Below are positions 33,651 to 33,815 of a DNA stretch of 64,000 bases, piece by piece; the first letter of the stretch is position 1; every line of letters begins with the position of its first letter. A program made the position numbers and the translations under genes. The notes beneath the pieces are model-generated. The model was not told where the DNA came from, ran no database searches, and saw only the letters and a program-made list of their open reading frames with translations. The stretch is taken from NCBI RefSeq assembly GCF_054482525.1, contig NZ_CM137006.1, one strand, 5' to 3'.

Positions 33651-33815
33651 TCACTCCACATCCTCCCTGCGTAACCCAATATCCCTCAACCGCTCATCAC
33701 TCATCTGCTGTAACACCCGCCGGGCCTGCATTTGCCGCCGCCAACGCCTCACTGCCTGCCAGAGTTGCACAAGTCCAATAAACGGTGCTTTAGCTTTGTT
33801 TTCGTGAAATTCCAT
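33651..33815 (-). CDS. yjiS: DUF1127 small protein (54 aa); below the size cutoff of the ORF track
   Basis: Hand-translated: MEFHENKAKAPFIGLVQLWQAVRRWRRQMQARRVLQQMSDERLRDIGLRREDVE; RBS GAGGAGG 6 bp upstream. Confidence 0.75.
   Translation of the reverse strand: MEFHENKAKAPFIGLVQLWQAVRRWRRQMQARRVLQQMSDERLRDIGLRREDVE

Follow-up and report, generated by a model that had tools for sequence, protein, structure and literature searches.

The minus-strand reading frame at positions 33651-33815 of the window (the whole 64,000-nucleotide stretch of DNA that was analyzed) is nearly certainly yjiS, a gene of the DUF1127 family. Taken as a whole, the evidence makes it probable that yjiS is a real, translated DUF1127 gene, that its product is a brake on the sensor kinase PhoR, that the divergently encoded regulator YjiR controls it, and that its place at the border of the immigration-control region is incidental. 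The gene was already known and annotated, and nothing about it is new in kind.

Identity and translation start of yjiS

Read from 33815 down to 33651, the gene runs ATG GAA TTT CAC ... GTG GAG TGA, i.e. 54 codons plus the TGA stop; a Pfam match, identity to the K-12 gene and RefSeq annotation all support this call. The 54-residue product, MEFHENKAKAPFIGLVQLWQAVRRWRRQMQARRVLQQMSDERLRDIGLRREDVE, contains the signature SDERLRDIGLRREDV, and the minus-strand frame and C-terminal DUF1127 signature of the original prediction were thus both found where they had been placed. Against the DUF1127 profile (PF06568) YjiS scores 46.6 bits (gathering cut-off 23.3; E 2.8e-12), with residues 18-54 covering profile positions 1-37 of 37, and its similarity to the family is clearly above the cut-off. 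The family motif SD-x-x-L-x-D-[IV]-G-L is present as SDERLRDIGL at residues 39-48, and S39, D40, L43, D45 and G47 are invariant among 39 orthologues. None of the NCBIfam models matches the protein, and no relative of solved structure was found, the best E value being 0.43 in the sequence search and 7.9 in the Foldseek comparison of folds.

The gene lies, as had been predicted, between pac (30754-33294, minus) and yjiR (33992-35404, plus). It had also been described as a gene that was missed. This holds for the size-limited list of open reading frames, in which the mechanical ORF of 59 residues would fall below a default threshold of 60, but not for public annotation: RefSeq has yjiS at identical coordinates in E. 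coli PCN033 (WP_000394263.1, 'DUF1127 domain-containing protein'). A 701-base query (window 33300-34000) is 100% identical to the PCN033 chromosome. The length of yjiS is by itself not significant, because 58 open reading frames of at least 30 residues touch the surrounding 6 kb. One of the frames in this region, a 73-residue antisense ORF (33586-33807, plus), overlies most of yjiS; it has no Pfam match, the substitutions fit the yjiS frame, and it is most likely a shadow ORF.

Where does translation begin? A Shine-Dalgarno sequence, GAGGAGG, occupies 33822-33828 (minus), and 6 nt separate the end of its GGAGG core from the ATG at 33815, which bears out the strong ribosome-binding site that had been claimed; a purine-rich element of the GGAG type is kept at the same place in most of 27 aligned species. 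An in-frame ATG further upstream (33828-33830, minus) gives the mechanical ORF at 33651-33830, but has no Shine-Dalgarno element before it and is not the true start. In K-12 and Klebsiella an in-frame TAG stands between the upstream start codon and the real one, and a T-to-C change relative to K-12 abolishes this TAG here, yielding a spurious five-codon extension. Orthologous loci were drawn from a one-genome-per-species collection and number 62 (Escherichia, Citrobacter, Klebsiella, Raoultella, Kluyvera, Enterobacter, Leclercia, Lelliottia, Yokenella, Shimwellia, Superficieibacter, Huaxiibacter, Tatumella, Erwinia and Pantoea; there is no Salmonella locus among them). The N-terminus MEF[H/Y/F]EN, with an ATG start, is found in all 62, and 29 have no in-frame start upstream. 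The 59-residue form thus arose by the chance of a single T-to-C change, and the ATG at 33815 is the real start. Orthologues are 53-54 residues long, except for those of Erwinia and Pantoea (63 residues) and a frameshifted copy in Citrobacter koseri.

Contigs binned as 'Bacillota bacterium' and 'Collinsella sp.' also carry a yjiS gene, whose product is 94% identical to that of E. coli, and the YjiS of a 'Chryseobacterium sp.' contig is two residues away from that of Citrobacter sp. 18056. These cases look like contamination or mis-binning.

RNA structure around the start codon was also considered. A hairpin that could mask the ribosome-binding site (GCCUCU paired with GGAGGC) was rejected, having a folding energy of -9.8 kcal/mol, a z-score of -0.87 and a pairing that is broken in Enterobacter, and RNAalifold predicted no pairs in this region across 25 species. 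Three archaeal C/D snoRNA models that touched the region scored 16-21 bits against cut-offs of 45-54 and are chance matches; no Rfam family came above threshold in 33000-34300 at E values up to 1. No recognizable good sigma-70 promoter was found upstream of yjiS. This would fit a gene that depends on an activator, although it does not count as evidence for one.

YjiS is 94% identical to its K-12 counterpart over 54/54 residues: 51 of the 54 are shared with the K-12 derivative ER1709 and the differences are K7R, A31T and R44K. At the DNA level 11 of 165 positions differ, of which eight are synonymous and three conservative. The dN/dS ratio for this pair is 0.084, with dS 0.28, and ratios within Escherichia range from 0.08 to 0.25; in other genera the synonymous sites are saturated, yet protein identity is still 42-76%. 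The gene is under purifying selection. The low dN/dS, the ribosome-binding site and the conserved N-terminus speak indirectly for its translation. The dS of 0.28 between the PCN033 and K-12 alleles (33651-33815 against positions 20001-20165 of locus L002, the K-12 copy), as compared with values up to 0.16 for yjiR between E. coli strains, is far above within-species expectation, and matches the known 'bastion of polymorphism' around the immigration-control region.

The divergent yjiR gene and the spacer boxes

YjiR is a regulator of the MocR type, i.e. a GntR DNA-binding domain (E 5.9e-16) fused to an aminotransferase-like PLP domain (Aminotran_1_2, E 2.3e-38). An orthologue 63-99% identical to it is encoded divergently from yjiS in all 60 loci for which upstream DNA is available; the orthologous gene is complete in 53, truncated by a contig end in four and fragmented in three. 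The spacer between the two genes is 176 nt here, and 175-178 nt wherever the yjiR start is intact, from Escherichia to Pantoea. Klebsiella has the same pair in other surroundings: next after yjiS come marR, an RND-type adaptor gene and a DUF2955 gene, and no yjiA lies within 6 kb. Three loci break the pattern and count against a link with YjiR. In Citrobacter koseri the frameshifted yjiS encodes 40 residues and the yjiR match consists of only two weak pieces, and in one Leclercia and one Kluyvera genome yjiR is fragmented and yjiS intact.

Alignment of the spacer from 27 species, Escherichia to Pantoea, revealed five short related boxes, all given here as read on the minus strand. Nearest to yjiS are two copies of TCTGTAT, box 5 at 33870-33876 (-61 to -55 from the yjiS ATG) and box 4 at 33900-33906 (-91 to -85), which form a direct repeat 30 bp apart, are invariant in 27/27 species, and are candidate half-sites of a YjiR operator. 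Two inverted copies follow. Box 3 (GTACAGA, 33946-33952) has one mismatch and sits in a block, AACCAGTACAGA, that is nearly invariant even in Erwinia and Pantoea; box 2 (ATACAGA, 33964-33970) lies 18 bp from it, in CCATACAGA, which is kept in 24 of the 27 species, occurs in one more as a variant with an intact ATACAGA core, and is lost only in Erwinia and Pantoea. Box 1 (GCTGTAT, 33985-33991) abuts the yjiR start codon and is nearly invariant in the same 27 species, but its conservation may instead be due to the yjiR translation-initiation region. Exact TCTGTAT occurs three times in 101 bp, against 4.66 occurrences expected over the whole 64 kb. A sixth exact TCTGTAT is found at 33546-33552 (plus) in the cassette-specific DNA between yjiS and pac, upstream of pac, where about 0.03 would be expected in 356 bp.

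The boxes are laid out like the sites reported for MocR regulators, which are direct or inverted repeats, and most MocR motifs contain TGT (PMC5320631). The supplement to that 2016 in-silico study lists a 'YjiR - Enterobacteriales' regulog with a COG5457 (DUF1127) target, and COG5457 genes are frequent in MocR regulons generally (PMC5320631). The conserved boxes support this existing prediction and do not amount to a new one. On this view YjiR, which is PLP-dependent, would act on the TCTGTAT/ATACAGA repeats of the 176-nt divergent spacer and so control yjiS transcription. DUF1127 (COG5457) genes are predicted targets of MocR-type regulators in Rhizobiales too, for example beside Agrobacterium Atu1848 (PMC5320631 supplement), and the pairing may be general to the DUF1127 family. 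ArcA ChIP data show that yjiR is directly repressed by this protein; part of the conserved spacer may therefore serve ArcA, and the boxes may belong to a factor other than YjiR. Readings of the spacer, by eye, as a Pho box, a PhoP box or a LexA box found no support: Klebsiella does not keep the first CTGT of the Pho-box-like element, and the spacings are wrong.

The pac slot and the loss of yjiS

Homology to K-12 stops at 30662 and resumes at 33651, and between these points lies a cassette of 2,988 bp (30663-33650) in place of the 16,005 bp present in K-12. By pairwise comparison the right-hand limit, 33651, coincides with the final base of the yjiS stop codon, and the left-hand limit is 14 nt before the stop of yjiA (29720-30676, plus; a GTPase gene annotated by RefSeq), whose last 14 nt are thus inside the variable segment. 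The 3' ends of both flanking genes are directed into the slot. Its gene is pac, for penicillin G acylase (Penicil_amidase, E 5.3e-138; RefSeq), which is downstream of yjiS and co-oriented with it. The order in PCN033 is btsT-yjiX-yjiA, pac (minus), yjiS (minus), yjiR (plus), rpn (minus), mdtM and yjiN; ER1709 has mrr, hsdR, hsdM, hsdS, symE, mcrB, mcrC and the remnants of the pseudogenes yjiV and yjiT between yjiA and yjiS. That the immigration-control region had been replaced was part of the original prediction, and it is correct, since pac alone stands here for the mrr-hsdRMS-symE-mcrBC-yjiT array of K-12. The genes yjiPRS and yjiAXY have been described as the conserved 'framework' of the region (PMC4498929). 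Its non-defence cargo includes a penicillin-hydrolysing enzyme (PMC12707154), and a 2025 review takes yjiN, not yjiS, as the right-hand anchor (PMC12707154).

The DNA between yjiS and pac (33295-33650, minus) starts right after the yjiS stop codon, is specific to the cassette, with no homology to K-12, PAR, FDAARGOS_1301 or UTI89, and must hold the pac promoter. A consensus scan found no terminator after yjiS, and the first 130 nt 3' of the gene, when folded, gave a z-score of 0.06 and a hairpin lacking a U-tract. At the cassette ends no terminal repeats were found, only short imperfect pairs. A match of 23 nt (78%) between the 3' ends of pac and yjiS was dismissed, being about what chance would give by our estimate and lying 133 nt inside the cassette.

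Several other differences from the K-12 derivative were noted in the window. An hpa cluster for 4-hydroxyphenylacetate catabolism (15787-26913) lies between tsr and btsT and is lacking in the K-12 derivative; pac is about 4 kb from this aromatic-acid pathway, with btsT-yjiX-yjiA intervening. The gene rpn (35647-36603, minus) encodes an intact, 318-residue recombination-promoting nuclease of the Rpn family, whereas an internal stop makes it a pseudogene in the K-12 derivative. The gene persists in strains that lack yjiR on one side of it and mdtM on the other. A pentapeptide-repeat protein gene (42192-44519) and the 5.2-kb inverse autotransporter gene iatD (47074-52314) are not found at these positions in the K-12 derivative.

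The 701-base query was also run against 5426 complete E. coli genomes. Matches either span the whole query or start exactly at its position 352, which is window 33651. Those that take in the pac-side spacer, and cover 80% or more of the whole query, come from 1070 genomes. For the yjiS coding sequence plus upstream spacer, 3680 genomes have a match to at least 80% of the query length; in 421 further records the best match falls in the 80-90% identity band, and three that were sampled have only the 91-nt 3' end of yjiS; 1266 genomes have no match. The description of yjiS as a conserved right-hand flank is therefore right as to the border, which is exact at 33651, but must be qualified as to conservation, since only about two thirds of E. 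coli keep the gene whole. As about a third of the complete genomes have no intact yjiS, its function is dispensable.

What is left behind has been found in PAR, FDAARGOS_1301 and UTI89, in which a yjiS remnant directly adjoins rpn and both yjiR and mdtM are absent. The remnants are the last 91-93 nt or so of the gene (L006 16195-16285, which is UTI89; L004 11999-12091; L003 8001-8093). UTI89, the only one of these strains that was aligned, retains the equivalent of 33653-33743 together with a 78-nt internal fragment of yjiR. Its remnant translates to MQTRCVLQQVRDERLKDIGLCREDVV, with R-to-C, S-to-R and E-to-V changes, and RefSeq lists the same 26 residues in UTI89 and FDAARGOS_1301 as a 'hypothetical protein' (WP_020233658.1). 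These radical substitutions show decay at the locus, in contrast to the intact alleles.

Could the yjiS frame in the window likewise be a silent or decaying relic that has no current function? That many E. coli hold just a 3' remnant, that no good sigma-70 promoter is seen upstream, and that the Salmonella protein is undetectable in rich medium would agree with this, but it is highly improbable given an intact frame with a strong ribosome-binding site and all the DUF1127 motif residues, a dN/dS of 0.08 despite a dS of 0.28, and upstream boxes that are fully intact; the true remnant in UTI89 looks different, with its three substitutions and 87% DNA identity. We give scarcely any credence to a further explanation of the locus, that yjiS, with yjiR, is a recombination accessory which steers cassette exchange to the immigration-control region. 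Kingston et al. did speculate that yjiRS or yjiAXY contributes to targeting, the Rpn recombination-promoting nuclease gene adjoins yjiR, and the breakpoint is precisely at the yjiS stop codon, even in strains with only the remnant. Homologous recombination in conserved flanks would, however, give a breakpoint at the gene end anyway. Moreover, Klebsiella keeps the yjiR-yjiS pair away from the slot, YjiS has neither a nuclease or recombinase domain (Pfam) nor a PADLOC match, the cassette ends carry no terminal repeats, and the phenotype of a yjiS mutant is metabolic. A role in a defence system was rejected as well: PADLOC returned nothing for YjiS, and for YjiR only weak, generic PLP-fold matches (SspA, DndA).

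The place of yjiS beside the slot is thus positional and not functional. As conserved DNA next to a hot spot, the gene would serve as an anchor for homologous recombination, and its stop codon and the last codons of yjiA have landmark value as the base-exact limits of the penicillin G acylase slot. The role of yjiS as a border gene has been in the literature since at least 2015, and functional papers on its family since 2020.

Function of YjiS and its relation to known systems

YjiS has ten arginines and two lysines against eight acidic residues, giving a net charge of +4 and a pI of 11.1. An AF2 model (39 orthologues) has a mean pLDDT of 84 and shows one long helix (residues 7-37), a second, short one (40-45) and an IGL turn. 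In 18-residue windows that begin at residues 12-14, at the junction of PFIGLVQLW with an arginine run, the hydrophobic moment reaches its peak of 0.45-0.52. YjiS is a strongly basic, mostly helical protein and, going by published work on nearly identical proteins, would be held at the cytoplasmic face of the inner membrane by its amphipathic helix.

The published experiments point to sensor kinases. In an E. coli yjiS mutant, pstS mRNA is elevated and phosphate is taken up faster (PMC12501420), and YjiS contacts PhoR both in a two-hybrid assay (in one fusion orientation only) and in Far-Western blots with purified proteins (PMC12501420). E. coli YjiS also complements an Agrobacterium triple DUF1127 mutant for pstS repression, and the authors hypothesize that it sits on the acidic PhoR linker and favours the phosphatase state (PMC12501420). 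In Salmonella, YjiS translation was seen by Ribo-seq and confirmed by western blot, only in infection-mimicking medium and not detectably in rich medium; salt releases the protein from the inner membrane, and it co-purifies with inner-membrane proteins including SsrA/B (PMC11707872). Replacing the arginines or the DIGL residues one at a time by alanine gave no phenotype, and RNA binding was not found (PMC11707872). Binding by YjiS may simply reflect charge.

By homology, the product of the present allele is most likely a small, basic protein at the membrane periphery which damps PhoR; binding to PhoR is transferred from the K-12 protein on account of the 94% identity, the only differences being K7R, A31T and R44K. 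YjiS would bind sensor histidine kinases, in K-12 PhoR, and its loss would raise pstS expression and speed phosphate uptake, making it a small-protein brake on the Pho two-component system.

A different function is suggested by Rhodobacter CcaF1, which shares the PF06568 domain with YjiS and binds RNA (PMC8034643): YjiS could be mainly an RNA-binding protein that alters sRNA maturation and mRNA turnover, its kinase contacts being secondary. The arginine-rich helix of YjiS agrees with this, as does the finding that either CcaF1 or E. coli YjiS complements the Agrobacterium triple mutant, the two being interchangeable in that assay. We nevertheless consider it unlikely. Salmonella YjiS has yielded no evidence of RNA binding and its partners are inner-membrane proteins, purified YjiS bound purified PhoR directly, and no sRNA cluster is found 3' of yjiS (Rfam, 33000-34300), the downstream gene being pac.

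The reading of YjiS as a PhoR brake can be joined to the conserved arrangement with yjiR. It is an evenly balanced possibility, resting on the fixed geometry and the boxes, that yjiR-yjiS is a sensor-effector module in which YjiR reads an amino compound and, via the TCTGTAT boxes, sets the level of a YjiS that throttles PhoR and possibly other sensor kinases. If this is true, the module couples nitrogen or amino-compound status to phosphate uptake, and E. coli of the UTI89 type, in which both genes are deleted, is without this PhoR brake. Two leads stand out. Few features of the locus are as well conserved as the pairing and the operator-like boxes, yet the 2025 YjiS experiments left yjiR aside, and the main text of neither paper (PMC12501420, PMC11707872) mentions it. 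The other lead is that yjiS and yjiR have both been lost in a large minority of E. coli.

Among known systems the closest is K-12 YjiS itself (b4341; WP_000394280.1), which has the same length of 54 residues, the same ribosome-binding site and, divergent from it beyond a 176-nt spacer that differs at only four bases, the same partner yjiR; the two loci differ 3' of the yjiS stop codon, where the DNA is wholly unlike, with yjiT in K-12 and pac here. The Salmonella Typhimurium protein (PMC11707872) is likewise a 54-residue DUF1127 protein with an N-terminal amphipathic helix, an arginine-rich region and a DIGL motif, and it too is peripheral to the inner membrane and contacts a sensor kinase system. 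Its gene, however, is reported to be SsrB-dependent and tied to macrophage escape (PMC11707872), and E. coli has no SsrA/B. Inhibitors of the MgrB type resemble YjiS in being very small proteins that damp a two-component sensor kinase, but MgrB is an integral membrane peptide of unrelated sequence that acts on PhoQ, whereas YjiS is peripheral and basic. Bearing on a comparison with MgrB-like feedback, no conserved Pho box was seen by eye in the yjiS spacer alignment of 27 species.

The remaining relatives, Agrobacterium SDP1-3 and Rhodobacter CcaF1, have the same Pfam domain as YjiS. SDP1-3 bind PhoR (PMC12501420), but YjiS is only about 24% similar to SDP1 (PMC12501420) and belongs to a different clade (PMC11707872). 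The Rhodobacter ccaF1 gene precedes an sRNA cluster with which it is co-transcribed, and its product binds RNA and aids the processing of that cluster, whereas yjiS here has no such cluster (Rfam). Alphaproteobacteria have several DUF1127 copies, in contrast to the one reported for E. coli (PMC12501420), and yjiS is the single copy within this window.
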